From a virus, in the IMG/VR virus record IMGVR_UViG_3300047157_000243, positions 1 to 64,000 of that record: DNA of 64,000 nucleotides; one strand, given 5' to 3'. The position numbers and the translations under genes were made by a program. Of the stretch, positions 33,852 through 63,670 are shown piece after piece (position 1 is the first letter of the stretch; every line of letters begins with the position of its first letter). The notes beneath the pieces are model-generated. The model was not told the origin of the DNA and made no database searches. It saw nothing but the letters and a program-made list of their open reading frames with translations.

Positions 33852-33908
33852 ACTGTAATATTTTAATAAAATATACGTTTATTTGTAAATAGTCACATAT
33901 TTATTATT

Positions 33909-38910: not shown

Positions 38911-39210
38911 ATGGCTTCTGATAATTATAGATATAATAAGTATAGCATGCCTGAACAAGATTGGGAAAAGAAACTTATTACATATTCTAACTTTATTTCA
39001 GATAGACTTAAGAGTTATTTGGCAAAAAAAAATATGACAACAGAAGTATTGTCTAAAAAGATTGGTATTTCAAACGATACAGCCAAATTGATGTTACACG
39101 ATATTTATGTTTATAATTATAGTATAGAAGAAATTTCTAAACTAGACCTTTTATTTGAAGGGCATTATGATGTTTATGAAAAAAAAGCTTTTGATAGAAA
39201 CAGTAAATAA
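38911..39210 (+). CDS. Possible XRE-type HTH protein
   Basis: L..KNMT...LSKKIGIS. Confidence 0.45.
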   Translation: MASDNYRYNKYSMPEQDWEKKLITYSNFISDRLKSYLAKKNMTTEVLSKKIGISNDTAKLMLHDIYVYNYSIEEISKLDLLFEGHYDVYEKKAFDRNSK

Positions 39211-39887: not shown

Positions 39888-40022
39888 TTATTTTCCCTGG
39901 CCTCTGTATTTTTTTTTGTAATACTTTGCACCTTTAGAGTTAGAATGTTTGCTTTTAGCATGAATACCTGGTCTTTTCTTTTTCATTTCACCAGAATTGT
40001 TTTTACTAGAAGATTTTGCCAT
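39888..40022 (-). CDS. 44-aa basic phage protein ending YRGQGK (missed by ORF track)
   Basis: MAKSSSKNNSGEMKKKRPGIHAKSKHSNSKGAKYYKKKYRGQGK; TATTTAT at 40049-40055. Confidence 0.75.
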   Translation of the reverse strand: MAKSSSKNNSGEMKKKRPGIHAKSKHSNSKGAKYYKKKYRGQGK

Positions 40023-40095
40023 TTTAAATATGATTTTAATTGTTAATAATAAATATGAAAAAATTTCATTTATTGACTTTGGTGAATACTTTTCT

Positions 40096-40102
40096 TATCT
40101 TG
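40096..40102 (+). promoter_or_regulatory. Host-type promoter (TTGACT...TATCTTG) for the capsid/sheath-fragment operon
   Basis: TAnnTTG 5 nt before ATG 40108; TTG at 40073. Confidence 0.5.
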
Positions 40103-40107
40103 CATAA

Positions 40108-40422
40108 ATGACTAAAAGTCTTTTGATAGAAAAGTGCGGACACCTGTCTCTTAATTTAACTTCTGTTCAAGTGATGGGAGAGTTTAGGCCATTAAGAACA
40201 TGTTGGACTCCCGAGCTCTATCAAGACTCAGAATATTATACTAATAATTATGAGGCAGAAGAGCCTGAAAACATTTTTAAAAAGAAGTTAATAATTGAAA
40301 AATATATACCTTATAACTTTAAAGATGTCGAATCAGAGCTTTCTAATATTTTAGCTACAGAACTTGGAGCATCTATTGATGCAGAGATATTAGGTAGTTT
40401 AATTGATTTGGAAAATGAATGA
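40108..40422 (+). CDS. Mini-protein made of T4 gp23-like major capsid protein fragments
   Basis: RPLRTCWTPELYQD and DVESELSNILATELGASIDAEIL match the gp23-family R.LKA.WT.ELAQD / DAEAELS.IL.TEI..EI.REI segment. Confidence 0.75.
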   Translation: MTKSLLIEKCGHLSLNLTSVQVMGEFRPLRTCWTPELYQDSEYYTNNYEAEEPENIFKKKLIIEKYIPYNFKDVESELSNILATELGASIDAEILGSLIDLENE

Positions 40423-40687
40423 TTCTATAAAGTCACATTTAGAAGAGTGGACTAATTTAGTTTATCCTAAAAAAGAAAACGTATACAAAAGAAAACTTCT
40501 TGTTGAAAAGTGTGTTGAATATACTGTTCGACATTCAGAAACTGATTTCACTGTTTTAGGTTATGACTTAATCACATCTGGTTCAACTATAATCGGAATT
40601 AGCTCTAGAGCAGTCGGCGGTCCAATTAATTATCCTACACACATAACAAGCTCAGAAGAATTTAGAGAAATTTTTGGTGATGTGTAA
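40415..40687 (+). CDS. Mini-protein containing a tail sheath (gp18-like) N-terminal fragment
   Basis: SETDFT...G.T..G......GP...P..ITS.EEF..IFG; ATG 40415 overlaps the upstream ORF by 8 nt. Confidence 0.7.
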   Translation: MNDSIKSHLEEWTNLVYPKKENVYKRKLLVEKCVEYTVRHSETDFTVLGYDLITSGSTIIGISSRAVGGPINYPTHITSSEEFREIFGDV

Positions 40688-40737
40688 TATTTTTTAAAAA
40701 TTTACGTTTATATAACATAACAATTAAAAATTATATT

Positions 40738-41085
40738 ATGAGCTTAACACAAAAAGAGAAAGACGAAATTCACGAAAGAGTTGAAAGTATGACACCTAAA
40801 CAAAGAAGTCGTAGAATGGATAGGTTAGTAAATGAATCTATAATTAAGAGCGTAATTGTACATGCTGTTTTATTGTTATATGTACTTACATCTGTGTATA
40901 TAAAACAAAACTATGAAATTAATAGCCTTATATACATAGTTTTAATTGGGGTGGGTATTTTTTGGACTTACGGTTGTATGTTGACGTTTCAAGCATATCT
41001 GTTTTTTAAGAGCGCAAAAAATTTATCTAATTCATTTGGTTCAAGTATACAAGATGGTATTGATTTTTTAGATTTAAATGAATAA
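40738..41085 (+). CDS. Two-TM membrane protein
   Basis: Two hydrophobic helices. Confidence 0.65.
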   Translation: MSLTQKEKDEIHERVESMTPKQRSRRMDRLVNESIIKSVIVHAVLLLYVLTSVYIKQNYEINSLIYIVLIGVGIFWTYGCMLTFQAYLFFKSAKNLSNSFGSSIQDGIDFLDLNE

Positions 41086-41160: not shown

Positions 41161-41934
41161 CTATTTTTTTTCTATTTCTGAAATTATTTTATTAGCTTCT
41201 TTTTTTAATTTTTTGATTTCTTCAGATTTTCTAGCTTCTTCTCTAAAGATTTTTCTAATATCATTTTCATTAATAGATTCATTCTTACCACTTATACCAG
41301 CAAGTTTCCTGTCTTTATATGCTGCTGCCAATGTAGGCTTTCCTTTCAGGTCTACAATTCTAATATCTTGTTTACTAACATTTAATCCATCCCATTTATT
41401 TTTAGGAGTTAATACTTTATCAATAAAAGATTGAACTCTTGATTTTAAACCAGCTTTTTCTTCATCAGTCAATTCTCTAACAACTTTACCAGCGGTTAAG
41501 TTGTCTACACCTTTCCATTCTATCATTTCACCTTTGTCTATTTCAGCTTCAACAGCTTTCTTGGCAAGAGATATAGCTTCTTCAGCTTTCTTCGGGTCTT
41601 TTTTAAACATGTCCATTACACCTTCTTCACACCTTCGCCTTCGTTTTCTTCAACACCTTCGTTTTCTTCACACCTTCGTTTTCTTCAACACCTTCGTTTT
41701 CTTCAACGCCTTCGTTTTCTTCAACGCCTTCATTTTCTTCAACGCCTTCGTTTTCTTCAACGCCTTCGTTTTCTTCAACGCCTTCTTCGCAAGTATCATT
41801 CTCTTCCATTGAGTAGTTCTCGTTTAAACGCTTTTTGAATTTTCGCTTTCTCAGCCTCTAAAGATTGAATTGTTAAAAAATCTATCAGCTTCTTCTTTTA
41901 TTATTTGACTAAGCTCTTGTTTTGAAATTTTCAT
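41161..41934 (-). CDS. Acidic repeat protein, possible head core/scaffold component (four compensating 1-nt indels; ORF track splits it)
   Basis: ATG 41934 MKISKQELSQIIKEEA is in frame with 41161..41616; extra bases at 41875-80 and 41832-36, missing bases near 41670 and 41629; about 257 aa restored. Confidence 0.65.
41636..41788. repeat. 18-bp tandem repeat encoding (EENEGV)x8
   Basis: ttcgttttcttcaacgcc/acc units. Confidence 0.9.
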
Positions 41935-50835: not shown

Positions 50836-53800
50836 TTATATACTTTTTATTATAGTTTTAATGTCCCAACTTTCAGCGCCTGTAATTGTAGCTGTTAAAT
50901 CTGCAGTGTTTCCTGTGGAAATAACTACACTCATAGTTACTGCAGTAGTTGAACCATTTATGTCATTAGTACTAACATCTGAATAGTCCACACTAGAACC
51001 ACTCCAAATAGATGAAATATTACCAGCTCTAGCACCACCTGAAGATGTTCCCACTATTGTATAATCATAAAAACCTCCTGTGTATGCACTTGTTGGTATA
51101 GAATATAAAACATTAGCACCAGTAGTTACTGTCGAATACGAACTTGTATTTAATGATGGAGATATATTATCACCCATCAGTATAGTGTTGTCAGAATAAA
51201 CCTCTAATACAGGCAGGCCTGATATGTCATTTACAGCGAATAATTGACCATCTAAATTGTCTGTTACAGTAAAAAGTTCTCCACTTGAGCCTTGAACACT
51301 AAATATAGGACTTGTATCTCCTGAGCCATATATGGTAAGTGCTGGGAGTGTTGTCCCTGAAATTGTTCCTCCCGTTAGCGGCAAGAAATCTCCGCCACCA
51401 CCAGCAGAACCTGTAACTACATTTCCACCAGAATCTATACCTAAATTATTAACGGATGTTCCTGTAGCTAAACTGTTTATGTTTAAATAAGGAACATAAA
51501 CTGTGTCATCAGTTGTTCCTGTAATATTTTGCCCACCTAAAACGGCACTTCTTACACCCGTAACCAAAGAGTCGGTAGAGTGTATAAAAGAAGTTAGGCC
51601 AGAAGCTATAGAGTTTCTACCAGCGGCATGAGTATAATTTCCAGAAGCTATTGTTTGGCTGTTTTGCGAGTGACTAAATGAACCAACAGATGTCGTTTGT
51701 CCCCCTTCAGCGTGAGAATATCCTGAAGCGAATGTTGTAAAACCTTCTGCATGAGAAGCAAACCCAGAAGCTGTAGTGCTTTCACCTTCTGCATGCGAAC
51801 CTAGACCACTTGCCACAGTAAATCTACCTTCAGCATGAGACCCCTGTCCAGAAGCTAAAGTGCTTAGACCCTCAGAGTGTGAAGAGTATGTTATTGCAGA
51901 TGTTGGCTGTGACAACGAGCCCTTACCAGTAAAATAAATACCCCCTTCAGCATGTGATGCTTCTCCGCTTGCTAAATTGTTATTACCTTCAGCGTGAGAA
52001 TAATCTCCGCTTGCTGTTGTTTGAGAACCTTCAGCGTGAGAATAGTCTCCACTAGCTACAGTATTATTGTTTTGAGCATGAGCCCCTCTACCAGAGGCTG
52101 TAGAAAGTTCACCTTCAGCATGAGAACCTGTACCTAAAGAAATTGAGCCAATACCCTCAGCGTGAGAAGTGTCGCCAGATGCTATCGTATTAGTACCTTC
52201 AGCATGTGATAGGCCACCACTCGCAGTAGTATTCCCTCCTTCAGCATGAGATGAAACGCCTGATGCAGTATTTGGGATAGTACCTTTTCCATCAAATCCA
52301 CCTTCAACATGAGAAGCGTGTCCACTAGCTATATTCGAAATTCCTTCAGCATGAGAATAGTCTCCACTTGCTGTTGTTTGAAAGCCTTCCGAGTGAGAAA
52401 CGACACCAAGAGACGTTGTCTGAAAACCTTCAGCATGAGAAGTGTCACCAGAAGCTACTGTAAGCTCTCCTTCAGCGTGACTGGCACTCCCGTAAGTAAT
52501 TGAGTCATTCCCTTCTGCGTGAGAGTTGGTTCCAAAAGTCTTAGTTCCAGTACCTTCAGCATGAGAATTGTTTGCAACGGCTGTGGTAAAAAATCCTTCA
52601 GCGTGAGCAGTTGCACCACTAGCTCTAGTGTTTGCCCCTTCTGCATGTGAAGCGAGTCCTGCAGCAATGTTAATATACCCCTTCCCTGGAAAACCTCCTT
52701 CAGCATGAGAAGCCTCTCCTACAGCTTGATTTCCAAATCCTGAAGCAAAAGAATAGTTACCTGTCGCATCTACACCTGAAGTATTTATGGCTTTTATAGA
52801 AAAAGAACCTGTTGAGCCTGTTGTGAAAACAGTCGTACCAGTTCCTCCGCCACCACCAGCAGAACCTGTAACTACATTTCCACCAGAATCTATACCTAAG
52901 TTATTAACAGATGTTCCTGTAGCTAAGCTGTTTATGTTTAAATAAGGAACATAAACTGTGTCATCAGTTGTTCCTGTAATGTTTTGCCCTCCTAAAATAG
53001 CACTTCTTTGACCAGTAACTAAAGAGTTTGTTGAATGTACAAAAGAAGTGGAACCAGATGCAATAGAGTCAGAACCTCCCGCATGCGAAAATGAACCGCT
53101 TGATATTGTTTCAAAACCTTCTGCATGTGAAGCTAGTCCACTAGCTGTTGAGCTATAACCTTCTGCATGAGCGGCATCATTACTAGCCGTTGTATCAAAA
53201 CCTTCCGTATGAGACGCTGTACCTGTAGATGTTGTATTAAAGCCTTCTGAATGAGAAGATGTACCGCTTGCTATTGTATTTAAACCTTCCGCATGAGAGT
53301 CGGCTCCACTTGCCACAGTACCAAATCCTTCAGAGTGAGAATCTTCACCACTAGACGTTGTGTTCCATCCTTCAGCATGAGCATAATCTCCACTTGCAAC
53401 CGTAAACAATCCTTGCGCATGAGAATCTTCACCAGATGCTGTTGTAAAATATCCTTCAGCATGAGCTTCCGCTCCAATGGCAGAAGTTCCCCATCCTTCA
53501 GCATGAGATTCACCACCCCCAGCAACTGTAACACGACCTTCTGCGTGTGCAGAGCTTCCACTTGCTAATGTCTGCCTACCTTCAGCATGAGAAGCTGGTC
53601 CAGAGGATATAGTCGTTGCACCTTCTGCGTGTGCATAATTTCCTGAAGCCGAAGTACTACCACCTTCAGCGTGTGAATAAGAACCACTAGCAACTGTGAA
53701 AAACCCTTCTGAGTGGTCACCAACATTAAGTGCTTTAGTGGATTGTCCCTCAGCGTGAGAATAGTTCCCAGCAGCCAAAGTGCCTACGCCTTCAGCGTGA

Positions 53801-54330
53801 GACGAAAAAGTTGTAGCAGATGTTGGGTCTGAAAATTTACCATTAAAACCACCTTCAGCGTGAGATGCTGTTCCGCTAGCTAAATTATCGTAACCTGAAG
53901 CGAATGCATAATCACCTGTTGCATCTATTGCAGTATCATTTAAGGCTTTTATTGAAAATAAGCCAGTTGAACCAGATGTGAAAACTGAAGTAGAGCCAGT
54001 TAAATAATCTAATAAAGGAGTATCTCCAATAAAGTATGTGTCTCCTGAAATAGTTGACCCACTTATGTTTTCAGCAGTAATACCTGTAAGATTTATACTT
54101 CCATTTAAATTAACTTCATAAGTTGATATTCCTAAAGTGGAGCCAGAAACAACATTTATGTTTGAACCTCCATCTGTGATTGAATGCCCACTTAAAATGC
54201 CATGTATGGCATCTCCAAAAACATCTTCGATAAGCTCAAAGTTGTCATTTATTTTAACTCTACCCTCGTTGGGCGTATCCGAAGGGAGTATATCTTTTAT
54301 TGTTGTTGTACCTGTAAAAAAATGTGACAC
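50836..54330 (-). CDS. Long tail fibre with YadA-head-like 14-aa (SHAEG..T.ASG) repeats
   Basis: Dozens of SHAEG repeats in two blocks; N-terminal SDTPNEGRVKINDNF shared with other fibres. Confidence 0.85.
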   Translation of the reverse strand: MSHFFTGTTTIKDILPSDTPNEGRVKINDNFELIEDVFGDAIHGILSGHSITDGGSNINVVSGSTLGISTYEVNLNGSINLTGITAENISGSTISGDTYFIGDTPLLDYLTGSTSVFTSGSTGLFSIKALNDTAIDATGDYAFASGYDNLASGTASHAEGGFNGKFSDPTSATTFSSHAEGVGTLAAGNYSHAEGQSTKALNVGDHSEGFFTVASGSYSHAEGGSTSASGNYAHAEGATTISSGPASHAEGRQTLASGSSAHAEGRVTVAGGGESHAEGWGTSAIGAEAHAEGYFTTASGEDSHAQGLFTVASGDYAHAEGWNTTSSGEDSHSEGFGTVASGADSHAEGLNTIASGTSSHSEGFNTTSTGTASHTEGFDTTASNDAAHAEGYSSTASGLASHAEGFETISSGSFSHAGGSDSIASGSTSFVHSTNSLVTGQRSAILGGQNITGTTDDTVYVPYLNINSLATGTSVNNLGIDSGGNVVTGSAGGGGGTGTTVFTTGSTGSFSIKAINTSGVDATGNYSFASGFGNQAVGEASHAEGGFPGKGYINIAAGLASHAEGANTRASGATAHAEGFFTTAVANNSHAEGTGTKTFGTNSHAEGNDSITYGSASHAEGELTVASGDTSHAEGFQTTSLGVVSHSEGFQTTASGDYSHAEGISNIASGHASHVEGGFDGKGTIPNTASGVSSHAEGGNTTASGGLSHAEGTNTIASGDTSHAEGIGSISLGTGSHAEGELSTASGRGAHAQNNNTVASGDYSHAEGSQTTASGDYSHAEGNNNLASGEASHAEGGIYFTGKGSLSQPTSAITYSSHSEGLSTLASGQGSHAEGRFTVASGLGSHAEGESTTASGFASHAEGFTTFASGYSHAEGGQTTSVGSFSHSQNSQTIASGNYTHAAGRNSIASGLTSFIHSTDSLVTGVRSAVLGGQNITGTTDDTVYVPYLNINSLATGTSVNNLGIDSGGNVVTGSAGGGGDFLPLTGGTISGTTLPALTIYGSGDTSPIFSVQGSSGELFTVTDNLDGQLFAVNDISGLPVLEVYSDNTILMGDNISPSLNTSSYSTVTTGANVLYSIPTSAYTGGFYDYTIVGTSSGGARAGNISSIWSGSSVDYSDVSTNDINGSTTAVTMSVVISTGNTADLTATITGAESWDIKTIIKSI
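51391..52996. repeat. About 150-bp near-identical direct repeat (51391-51541 and 52846-52996) inside the fibre gene
   Basis: Both encode LGGQNITGTTDDTVYVPYLNINSLATGTSVNNLGIDSGGNVVTGSAGGGG with about 5 synonymous differences. Confidence 0.9.
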
Positions 54331-62578: not shown

Positions 62579-62632
62579 TTTTTAAGTTGTTATTTTTTTT
62601 TTAAATTTGTTTTGAATCAAACAATTTTAATT

Positions 62633-63670
62633 ATGAGCAATAAAAACTGCAACATCACAAAATCAATAAGGGAAAAGATGGGTAGAAACATCCATAACAC
62701 CCAAAATCATCCAATTAAAATAATTAAAGATAAAATATACGAATATTTCGGTGAGTCTTTTGAAAAGTTTGATTCTTTTGAACCTAAAGTAAATGTTGTA
62801 GAAAATTTTGACAAATTACTAATACAAAAAGAACACCCAGCGAGAAGCTTGTCTGATACATATTATTTTGATGAAAACACTTGTTTAAGAACTCATACTT
62901 CAGCTCATCAAAACGAGTTATTATCTAAAGGTTGTGAAAAATTTCTTGTAACAGGAGATGTTTATAGAAAAGATGAGATAGACAGTTCTCATTATCCTGT
63001 ATTTCATCAAATGGAAGGAGTTTGTATTGTTGAAGATAATGAAAATGTTCAAGAAGAATTTAAAAACAAATTAATTGGGCTAGTTGATTATTTGTTTCCT
63101 GGGTGTGAGTATAGATTTAATGATGATTATTTTCCTTTTACAGACCCATCTCTTGAAATTGAGGTTAAGTTTAATGGAGAGTGGTTAGAGATAATGGGAG
63201 GGGGAATTGTTCAAGGTAAAATAATGGAAAACTGTGGACTCAAAAATAAGAAAGCTTGGGCTTTTGGTTTAGGGTTAGAAAGGTTGGCTATGATTTTATT
63301 TAACATACCTGATATAAGATATTTTTGGACAACAGACGAAAGATTCTTAAATCAGTTTAAGTCAGGTGAAATTGTAGATTTTAAAGAGTATTCCAAATAT
63401 CCACCTTGCTCAAAAGATGTAGCTTTTTGGCTAAATGATGAATACAATTATAATGACTTTTGTGAAATAGTTAGAGAAATGGGTGGAGATTTTGTTGAAG
63501 AAATATCTTTATTAGATAAGTTTACTAATCCAAAAACAAACAAAATCTCTCATTGTTACAGAATCACTTATCGTTCAAATGATAGAAGTTTAACAAATGA
63601 AGAAATTGACGAAGTTCAAATTAAGGTTAGAAATCTACTAAAAGAGCAAATGAAATTAGAGCTTAGATGA
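62633..63670 (+). CDS. pheS: Phenylalanine-tRNA ligase, monomeric organellar-type (alpha catalytic domain + ferredoxin-fold anticodon-binding domain)
   Basis: HPARS.SDTYY, LRTHTSAHQ, YRKDEID..HYPVFHQMEG, FPFT.PS.E, AFGLGLERLAM, DIRYFW; C-term SKYPP...DVAFW...SHCYRITYRS.DRSLT.EEI. Confidence 0.93.
   Translation: MSNKNCNITKSIREKMGRNIHNTQNHPIKIIKDKIYEYFGESFEKFDSFEPKVNVVENFDKLLIQKEHPARSLSDTYYFDENTCLRTHTSAHQNELLSKGCEKFLVTGDVYRKDEIDSSHYPVFHQMEGVCIVEDNENVQEEFKNKLIGLVDYLFPGCEYRFNDDYFPFTDPSLEIEVKFNGEWLEIMGGGIVQGKIMENCGLKNKKAWAFGLGLERLAMILFNIPDIRYFWTTDERFLNQFKSGEIVDFKEYSKYPPCSKDVAFWLNDEYNYNDFCEIVREMGGDFVEEISLLDKFTNPKTNKISHCYRITYRSNDRSLTNEEIDEVQIKVRNLLKEQMKLELR

Follow-up and report, generated by a model that had tools for sequence, protein, structure and literature searches.

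What use could a phage have for short genes that look like pieces of capsid and tail-sheath proteins? This question is raised by two small open reading frames (ORFs), ORF1 and ORF2, in positions 1 to 64,000 of the viral record IMGVR_UViG_3300047157_000243; this stretch of 64,000 nucleotides (nt) is referred to here as the window. The window is part of a 75-kb seawater viral contig with about 30% G+C, which was estimated to be 25% complete, and the phage genome would therefore be about 300 kb. An earlier note on this DNA had described the pair as an early operon of capsid and sheath fragments that are candidate decoys. As that note stated, the ORFs are short and intact: ORF1 encodes 104 amino acids (aa) and ORF2 90 aa, both are open, and they overlap by 8 nt, with the ATG of ORF2 (40415) lying within the last ORF1 codons in ATGAATGA. 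The remaining five frames of ORF1 and ORF2 are all stop-rich and closed. A blastn search of the locus against cultured phages gave no match, and no description of such genes was found in a literature search.

The data showed that both proteins carry short pieces of T4-type virion proteins, that each piece is preceded by a tag, Y-K-[KR]-x-L-L-[IV]-E, and that the tag is the most conserved feature of the family. The answer that we favor, with a probability of roughly 35%, is that ORF1 and ORF2 encode protease-tagged mimics of assembly interfaces which act by docking, as head cargo, decoys or assembly modulators.

Capsid pieces in ORF1 and in the middle gene of relatives

First, the likeness of ORF1 to T4-type capsid proteins was examined using the Pfam profile Gp23 (PF07068). 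Residues 73-99 of window ORF1 matched profile positions 169-195 with E=2.9e-5 and 24.1 bits, just below the cut-off of 24.4, and a second, weaker match, collinear with the first, aligned residues 11-43 with positions 132-164. A tblastn search with window ORF1 returned 139 phage records, and the matches listed were almost all in genes annotated as major capsid protein (MCP). The ORF1 copy of the related locus L020 matched Gp23 with E=7.7e-13 (49 bits), and that of L018 returned 326 records (best 1e-9), where each annotated match among those listed was a capsid gene. BLASTP aligned the L020 copy with residues 191-249 of gp23 of Prochlorococcus phage P-HM1; the alignment left a 25-residue gap in gp23 exactly at the insert of the mini-protein, an insert that is absent from the real gp23. 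The claim that ORF1 is gp23-like was therefore confirmed.

Several relatives carry a third gene between the ORF1 and ORF2 types, and this middle ORF is a capsid N-terminus. In L003, L005, L018 and L020 it matched Gp23 profile positions 2-51 with 26.5-29 bits, spanning the capsid N-arm and the V-Q-P-M (Gol-like) region. The Gol-equivalent region is deleted in the window. The L-E-E-W start of window ORF2, which the earlier note had compared with capsid N-termini, did align with them, because it is derived from the lost middle gene.

A complete HK97-type fold in one chain, corresponding to the 376-position Gp23 profile, was not found in the window, which only has positions 132-164 and 169-196. 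AlphaFold2 modeling of ORF1 with a 13-sequence alignment gave a mean predicted local distance difference test (pLDDT) score of 53, and the sole confident element was a helix at residues 74-102 (pLDDT about 84). The pieces of ORF1 and ORF2 are thus predicted to be largely disordered and do not look able to fold alone. The predicted complex of ORF1 with ORF2 scored 0.01, a value to which we attach no weight for or against any reading. When the PDB was searched by sequence with ORF1, ORF2 and the middle ORF, all matches were chance ones.

The Gol-like region bears on the explanation given in the earlier note. As immune decoys, the mini-proteins would be putative copies of the most conserved capsid and sheath epitopes, occupying host sensors of these proteins without setting them off, or soaking up a factor required by the sensors, such as EF-Tu; if the peptides are loaded into the head through the tag, they would enter the cell along with the phage DNA. 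The pieces are indeed the most conserved parts of their parent families, and the middle gene of relatives includes the Gol-like region. The 29-residue Gol peptide, described as the most conserved gp23 region, binds EF-Tu and activates Lit (PMC3014915). EF-Tu is used by known capsid-sensing defenses such as Avs7, and sensors of capsid are frequent (PMC13581612). Fast evolution and the gain and loss of modules would also suit an arms race. However, a free Gol-like peptide would be expected to activate a Lit-type system, not to block it, and it is this Gol-like piece that the window, like three or more other lineages, no longer has. Early transcription is unsupported (see below), and we know of no sheath sensor. 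The sheath is given just as a possible sensor target (PMC13581612). We regard decoys as an unlikely explanation.

Sheath-arm likeness of ORF2

The likeness of ORF2 to tail-sheath proteins was analyzed in the same manner. With window ORF2, tblastn gave three matches at E 5-7, all three in tail-sheath genes, and neither Pfam nor PHROG gave a match; the copy in the window is eroded. Distant relatives retain S-P-G-V-Y-I-R-E-x-D-I-S. The sheath-arm copy of L018 matched 304 phage records, and the annotated ones among the matches listed were all tail-sheath genes. In P-HM1 the match spans gp18 codons 1-59, and the 824-aa full-length sheath of a huge phage was aligned over its first 56 residues. The claim that ORF2 is sheath-like is therefore clear for the relatives with S-P-G-V-Y-I-R-E, but it is weak for the eroded window copy. 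No Pfam match to the sheath core domains (PF04984) was obtained, and the protein stops at F-G. Capsid and sheath fragments that do not assemble, and not full proteins, are thus what the locus encodes, as had been proposed.

In an exhaustive hidden Markov model (HMM) search covering 1.84 billion representatives, additional mini-proteins were recovered, but nothing recognisable as a sheath of full length; the family has therefore long been separate from real sheaths. In this search a 1076-aa repeat protein (P0015) matched the sheath-arm profile with E=8.7e-13 in five stretches around G-G-L-D-Y-D-L-S-A-S-H; the protein does not look like a sheath, and the match is probably a chance match inflated by the repeats. 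Two tandem full-length sheath paralogues of 674 and 824 aa were seen in a 484-kb uncultured phage (LR756508.1, 202904-209122). A search for longer homologues with P0018, a protein in which the middle gene and the sheath arm are fused, covered about 1,600 longer candidates, none of which scored, and with E values of up to 0.1 allowed it yielded no protein of full length.

Full-length MCP and sheath genes, which the earlier note had proposed to look for elsewhere in the genome, were sought together with prohead protease, portal and tube genes, and none was found on five partial contigs, each at most 27% complete. These results were considered with respect to split structural genes, in which the sheath arm, and perhaps the capsid pieces, would be supplied in trans to full-length proteins lacking them. 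The sheath-like alignment ends exactly at the F-G that closes the first ~59 gp18 residues, and full-length genes of the lineage were unseen on the five contigs, as such a split would allow. However, essential virion parts would be far more conserved, whereas S-P-G-V-Y was lost and the ratio of nonsynonymous to synonymous substitutions (dN/dS) is at least 0.6. The capsid pieces are moreover scrambled, interrupted by the tag and partly dispensable, and the proteins are predicted to be disordered. Split genes are the least probable of the explanations considered.

The nature of the pieces points to a further explanation. The sheath N-arm, the capsid N-arm and E-loop strands, and the spine helix are what we take, from T4 and pyocin structures, to be interface elements. 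As putative assembly modulators or poisons, free interface pieces would cap subunit contacts or compete at them, so that the phage's own capsid and sheath subunits are held until the right time, or co-infecting T4-like phages (cyanomyoviruses sharing the habitat) are sabotaged. Capsid-protein homologues encoded by satellites, such as SaPIbov5 Ccm, are known to redirect the assembly of the helper. The full-length proteins that came closest to the mini-proteins were T4-like capsid and sheath proteins from marine cyanophages, from a Flavobacterium phage and from a huge phage. However, identity to full-length proteins was only 27-40%, and with about 1,600 longer candidates lacking a score the mimicry would be loose. 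This explanation also leaves the invariant tag unexplained, and we give it the same low odds as the decoys.

A shared tag before each piece

The tag was next compared among the copies. In the ORF2-type proteins (12 sequences) Y24, R26, L28, L29 and E31 are invariant, and in tag copy 2 of ORF1 (13 sequences) K58, K59, L61, E64, K65 and Y66 are invariant. Every tag copy reads [LI]-x-E, with L-L-x-E invariant, as in a leader that ends in L/I-x-E. At the DNA level the copies have 70-80% base identity, and the Leu, Ile and Val codons vary between them; the constraint is therefore on the peptide. A role of the repeat at the DNA level was rejected, since the copies are only 70-80% identical and use different codons for the same residues. 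Three copies are present in the operon and none elsewhere in the 64 kb, and none was found in shuffled sequence. A regular-expression scan of the window for helical N-terminal tags gave two carriers only.

The origin of the tag was investigated by alignment with real capsid proteins. PHROG 138 aligned residues 2-95 of the fused protein P0018 with profile positions 27-106, so that the tag region is collinear with the capsid propeptide, and MAFFT aligned the tag with ...L-I-S-E|A and V-L-T-E|A of real capsid proteins. The aligned E|A position is the maturation cut site in T4-type capsids. In T4, gp21 cleaves after L/I-x-E, and short N-terminal propeptides with such ends load proteins into the prohead (PMC9026906). 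The tag probably derives from the end of the capsid propeptide, and it fits the L/I-x-E site of T4-type prohead proteases.

A small protein of the helix-turn-helix family HTH_26 is encoded about 1 kb upstream on the same strand (window 38911-39210 (+), L003 4745-5053, L020 8640-8924). In relatives its C-terminus is tag-like, Y-E-K-[KI]-L-L-I-E-K, whereas the window copy differs (Y-E-K-K-A-F-D...).

Operon forms and recombination

Several marine data sets together supplied at least 13 contigs with the same locus in the same gene neighborhood. The family is widespread in seawater, and the locus was present in sequencing runs from 18 studies. For ORF1, at least 13 different intact homologues with 63-92% identity were identified, and 12 sequences of the ORF2 (sheath-arm) type were collected. 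All length differences among the copies are in-frame, and the overlapping start and stop codons are conserved.

The operon occurs in several forms. A three-gene form, with ORF1, a middle ORF of about 110 aa and a sheath-arm ORF, was found in L003, L005 and L020, and a four-gene form with an extra ORF of 89-92 aa without known parent in L018, L036 and L037. The middle gene and the sheath arm are fused into a 189-aa protein in P0018; the middle gene is a non-coding relic in L006 and absent in L030; and its leader is fused to the sheath-arm body in the window and in L034. The relatives thus show that there were three or four mini-genes in the ancestral operon.

Modules were gained and lost by recombination between tag copies. 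The repeat copies of L003 (family D2) are spaced 265 nt apart, and these 265 nt are missing in the window. Window ORF2 is thus a chimera, from which the third mini-gene (capsid N-terminal, Gol-like) was deleted by recombination between two tag copies. The leader of the window is of the L003 type and that of L034 of the L018 type, and apart from this region L006 and L034 hardly differ. There were therefore at least three independent losses of the middle body, and those in the window and in L034 took place via tag-tag crossover. In another seawater run, a contig was obtained in which an L003-like sequence replaces the fused junction of the window (loose end at 40503).

Two minor features of the relatives were also noted. 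The extra tagged mini-gene of 89-92 aa (L018 10308-10577, L036 4696-4965, L037 10314-10592) carries K-R-N-L-I-I-E-[YC]..., and no recognisable parent was found in Pfam, PHROGs or phage genomes. In L003 (6556-6610) and L005 (5913-5975), a (GAA)n tract forms the overlap of the middle ORF with the sheath-arm ORF. One frame gives poly-Arg at the end of the former, and another gives poly-Glu at a TTG that could be an upstream start of the latter; the true start of the sheath-arm ORF in these two loci is likely an internal ATG.

Selection on the mini-genes

Selection was estimated by pairwise Nei-Gojobori dN/dS. For ORF1 the values were 0.19-0.8, and they were 0.19-0.39 when the window, L003 or L005 was compared with L018 or L020 (dS about 0.9-1.9). 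The middle ORF gave 0.28-0.6 and the sheath-arm ORF 0.56-0.70 between clades and at least 1 within the close clade; the flanking YqeY gene, taken for comparison, gave 0.07-0.32. The sheath-arm ORF has unusually low dS in the close clade, where L003 and L005 differ by 12 amino-acid changes and 0 synonymous changes, and this gene may be under diversifying selection. Although 5.5-6.5% of single substitutions would give a stop codon, no copy has one. Since there are no stops despite this risk of about 6% and length changes are in-frame, these are real genes under moderate to weak constraint. The intactness test suggested by the earlier note thus showed frames that selection keeps open in relatives, not decaying relics.

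This result bears on the explanation that the operon is debris left from a former T4-type structural module, with frames that are still open by chance or maintained only because their translation benefits a neighboring gene. Debris would account for the scrambled order (capsid 130-196 before capsid 2-51), for the non-coding relic of the middle piece in L006 and its deletion elsewhere, for a dN/dS of 0.6-0.7 or higher in the sheath-arm gene, and for the eroded sheath hallmark of the window. However, ORF1 and the sheath-arm gene are intact at all of the ~13 loci, at dS of up to about 2 (ORF1) and about 0.75 (sheath-arm) and with the stop risk given above. In-frame length differences, tag residues that are invariant with varying codons, and conserved overlapping start and stop codons also argue against it, and we consider debris very improbable.

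The upstream region and expression

The region upstream of ORF1 was analyzed by six-locus DNA alignment. An ATTTAT box at 40068-40073 is invariant. The hexamer TTGACT (40073-40078) is found in the close clade only; L018 and L020 carry TATTTATATTTAT instead, a TATTTAT-type box. A second invariant block, T-T-T-T-C-Y-T-A-T-M-T-T-G-Y-A-W-A-A-ATG (40090-40110), abuts the start codon, and within the searched sequence it was found here alone. TTGACT-N17-TATCTT is a 9/12 promoter match, and such matches are no commoner here than in shuffled sequence. A Shine-Dalgarno sequence could not be discerned, and 6 nt separate the -10-like hexamer from the ATG; the ORF1 transcript may be leaderless or have a very short leader. 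TATTTAT is about 5-fold enriched upstream of window ORFs, as a rough estimate from counts.

These data did not bear out the host-type promoter assigned to the operon by the earlier note, because the 9/12 match occurs at shuffled frequency and the -35 box is absent from L018 and L020. Its claim of early expression is likewise unsupported: the -35 box is not conserved, and the distant relatives have the TATTTAT-type box that the same note gave to structural genes. RNA was assembled from one metatranscriptome run, which gave a contig inside the neighboring 222-aa gene and a short terminator-side piece, with no cover of ORF1 or ORF2.

Protease-tagged mimics as the favored reading

Under the favored reading, these are real, fast-evolving mini-proteins, built by the phage lineage from short pieces of a T4-type virion module. 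The pieces would be interface elements, namely the strand before E-L-A-Q-D-L and the spine helix in ORF1 and the sheath N-terminal arm in ORF2, and relatives add the capsid N-arm with the V-Q-P-M (Gol-like) piece. The tag would be a handle for the head-assembly machinery of the phage, either the protease or the scaffold core, and this machinery would recruit the mini-proteins and cut them into peptides of 30-60 residues. The passengers, unable to fold alone, would then dock by strand or helix complementation on partners of the parent proteins, which could be the phage's own assembly intermediates, those of a co-infecting phage, or a host sensor. Cleavage, targeting and binding by mimicry are thus putative steps.

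The readings overlap, in that the one built on the tag concerns protein handling and the others concern the action of the passengers. We rank the tagged mimics first, the immune decoys and the assembly modulators together after them, then debris, and finally split structural genes. In a more elaborate "bait plus handle" system, conserved contact pieces of the phage's own virion would be tagged, loaded into the head and delivered with the DNA into the next cell to blind sensors or to disarm T4-like rivals; action on capsid or sheath sensors, or on a resident or co-infecting T4-like phage, would then precede any late protein. This version is more doubtful than either decoys or modulators alone.

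Several findings weigh against the tagged mimics. The supposed machinery was unseen, with no T4-type (S77) prohead protease (PF03420), capsid, sheath, portal or tube gene on the five contigs at most 27% complete. L/I-x-E is very short as a motif, and the tag occurs on no further window protein, though other cargo would be expected to bear a general capsid-targeting signal. What a sheath piece would do in the head is not obvious. The sheath-arm genes are near-neutral in the close clade (dN/dS at least 1; 12 versus 0 changes between L003 and L005), and the loss of the S-P-G-V-Y hallmark in the window's clade is a poor fit to strict mimicry.

Comparison with known systems

The mini-proteins were compared with the capsid-targeted and prohead-core proteins of T4 (the internal proteins IPI, IPII and IPIII, and Alt, gp67 and gp68). 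In T4, proteins are docked in the core of the prohead by a leader that gp21 cuts; gp22, gp67 and gp68 are themselves cleaved to yield several peptides (PMC9026906). Like these proteins, the mini-proteins are small and have a short leader ending in L/I-x-E; their tag fits the T4 motif, aligns collinearly with the capsid propeptide and is repeated within single proteins. However, the tag has internal copies besides the N-terminal ones; there is no sequence homology to the T4 internal proteins, gp67 or gp68; and the passengers copy interface pieces of virion proteins, which no T4 internal protein does. Packaging and cleavage are putative for the mini-proteins.

T4-type gp23 (PF07068, PHROG 138) shares with the mini-proteins significant collinear matches to the propeptide and N-arm, the V-Q-P-M region, the strand before E-L-A-Q-D-L and the spine helix. 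In contrast to gp23, the window has ~60 of ~450-520 residues, the A-domain and the P-domain sheet are absent, and the order is scrambled and interrupted by the tag. An HK97 fold or a shell is not possible. The T4 gp18 sheath arm is matched by residues 26-89 of the relatives, which align with codons 1-59 (S-P-G-V-Y-x-x-E-x-D, G-P-x-x-x-P, F-G). Unlike gp18, the protein ends where the sheath domains begin, the start of the arm is eroded in the window, and a capsid-type tag is carried.

Capsid-derived satellite proteins of the SaPIbov5 Ccm type interfere with the assembly of another element. Ccm is satellite-encoded and has the full HK97 fold, whereas the pieces found here are 30-60 residues long and encoded by a giant phage. 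In the system of the Gol peptide, the e14 Lit protease and EF-Tu, a short, most-conserved gp23 stretch is active as a free peptide (PMC3014915), and the middle gene of relatives spans the equivalent. The T4 peptide, however, is a segment of gp23 instead of the product of its own phage gene, and it triggers suicide of the host; the window is without this piece.

If the mimicry is true, these would be the first phage genes known to reuse capsid and sheath fragments as tools, acting on host sensors, rivals or assembly timing. The tag would in that case extend the T4 capsid-targeting idea to a portable handle that works anywhere in a protein. The locus supplies concrete short peptides for testing against capsid-sensing defenses.

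Coordinates and neighboring features

The coordinates of the operon and its parts are given in Table 1.

Table 1. Features of the ORF1-ORF2 operon, with positions in the window
Feature	Position	Strand	Description
Upstream control region	40068..40110	+	Six-locus DNA alignment and promoter scan
ORF1	40108..40422	+	104 aa; order tag, capsid piece A, tag, capsid piece B
Tag copy 1	40114..40134	+	K-S-L-L-I-E-K, ORF1 residues 3-9; L6, E8, K9 invariant (13 sequences)
Capsid piece A	40138..40236	+	ORF1 residues 11-43, Gp23 profile 132-164; strand before E-L-A-Q-D-L of T4-type capsid proteins
Tag copy 2	40267..40305	+	E-N-I-F-K-K-K-L-I-I-E-K-Y, ORF1 residues 54-66; sits in a 25-30 residue insert splitting the capsid segment
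Capsid piece B	40324..40407	+	ORF1 residues 73-100, Gp23 profile 169-196, long spine helix
ORF2	40415..40687	+	90 aa; chimera in which the N-terminus of the lost middle mini-gene is joined to the sheath-arm mini-gene body
ORF2 leader	40415..40510	+	Capsid-propeptide-like (L-E-E-W...), ends in tag copy 3; matches the middle-ORF start of L003 and L005
Tag copy 3	40475..40510	+	E-N-V-Y-K-R-K-L-L-V-E-K
Recombination junction	40510..40511	+	265 nt of L003 (6404-6668) absent; crossover at the end of two tag copies (...GAAAAG)
Sheath N-terminal-arm-like body	40511..40684	+	ORF2 residues 33-90; S-P-G-V-Y eroded to V-E-Y-T-V, G-G-P-I-N-Y-P...F-G kept
Intergenic box AATTTACGTTTAT	40699..40711	+	Conserved; 39 nt upstream of the next gene (115-aa membrane protein, 40738-41085)

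The intergenic box reads AAT[TA]TACGTTTAT and occurs at 40699-40711 and 33870-33882, each 39 nt before a start codon (40738 and 33909); the copy at 33870-33882 has one mismatch and lies at the same distance before its gene. L018 and L020 also have the box 3' of the operon, and it may be an element of a promoter; overall enrichment of the AATTTACGTTTAT box was not found.

Divergent from the operon, at 39888-40022 (-), lies a gene for a very basic 44-aa peptide (~40% K/R) without a family match, which is kept in most of the related loci read and is absent from L018, L037 and L020. At 41161-41809 (-), the homologue of an acidic protein of 256-295 aa in relatives, with an M-K-I-S-K-x-E-L leader and E-N-E-G-[VI]-E repeats, is split into ORFs of 151 and 60 aa around a repeat tract; a frameshift, a pseudogene, or an error of assembly within the repeat could explain this.

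Farther from the locus, a phage-encoded single-chain phenylalanyl-tRNA synthetase of the mitochondrial type (tRNA-synt_2d and FDX-ACB) was found at 62612-63670 (+). A 1164-aa protein with 12 repeats of PHROG 25468 is encoded at 50836-54330 (-), in a G+C-rich island (38-44% versus ~30%), and it adjoins DUF285, PKD and laminin-G proteins, which are probably encoded by fiber or adhesin genes.

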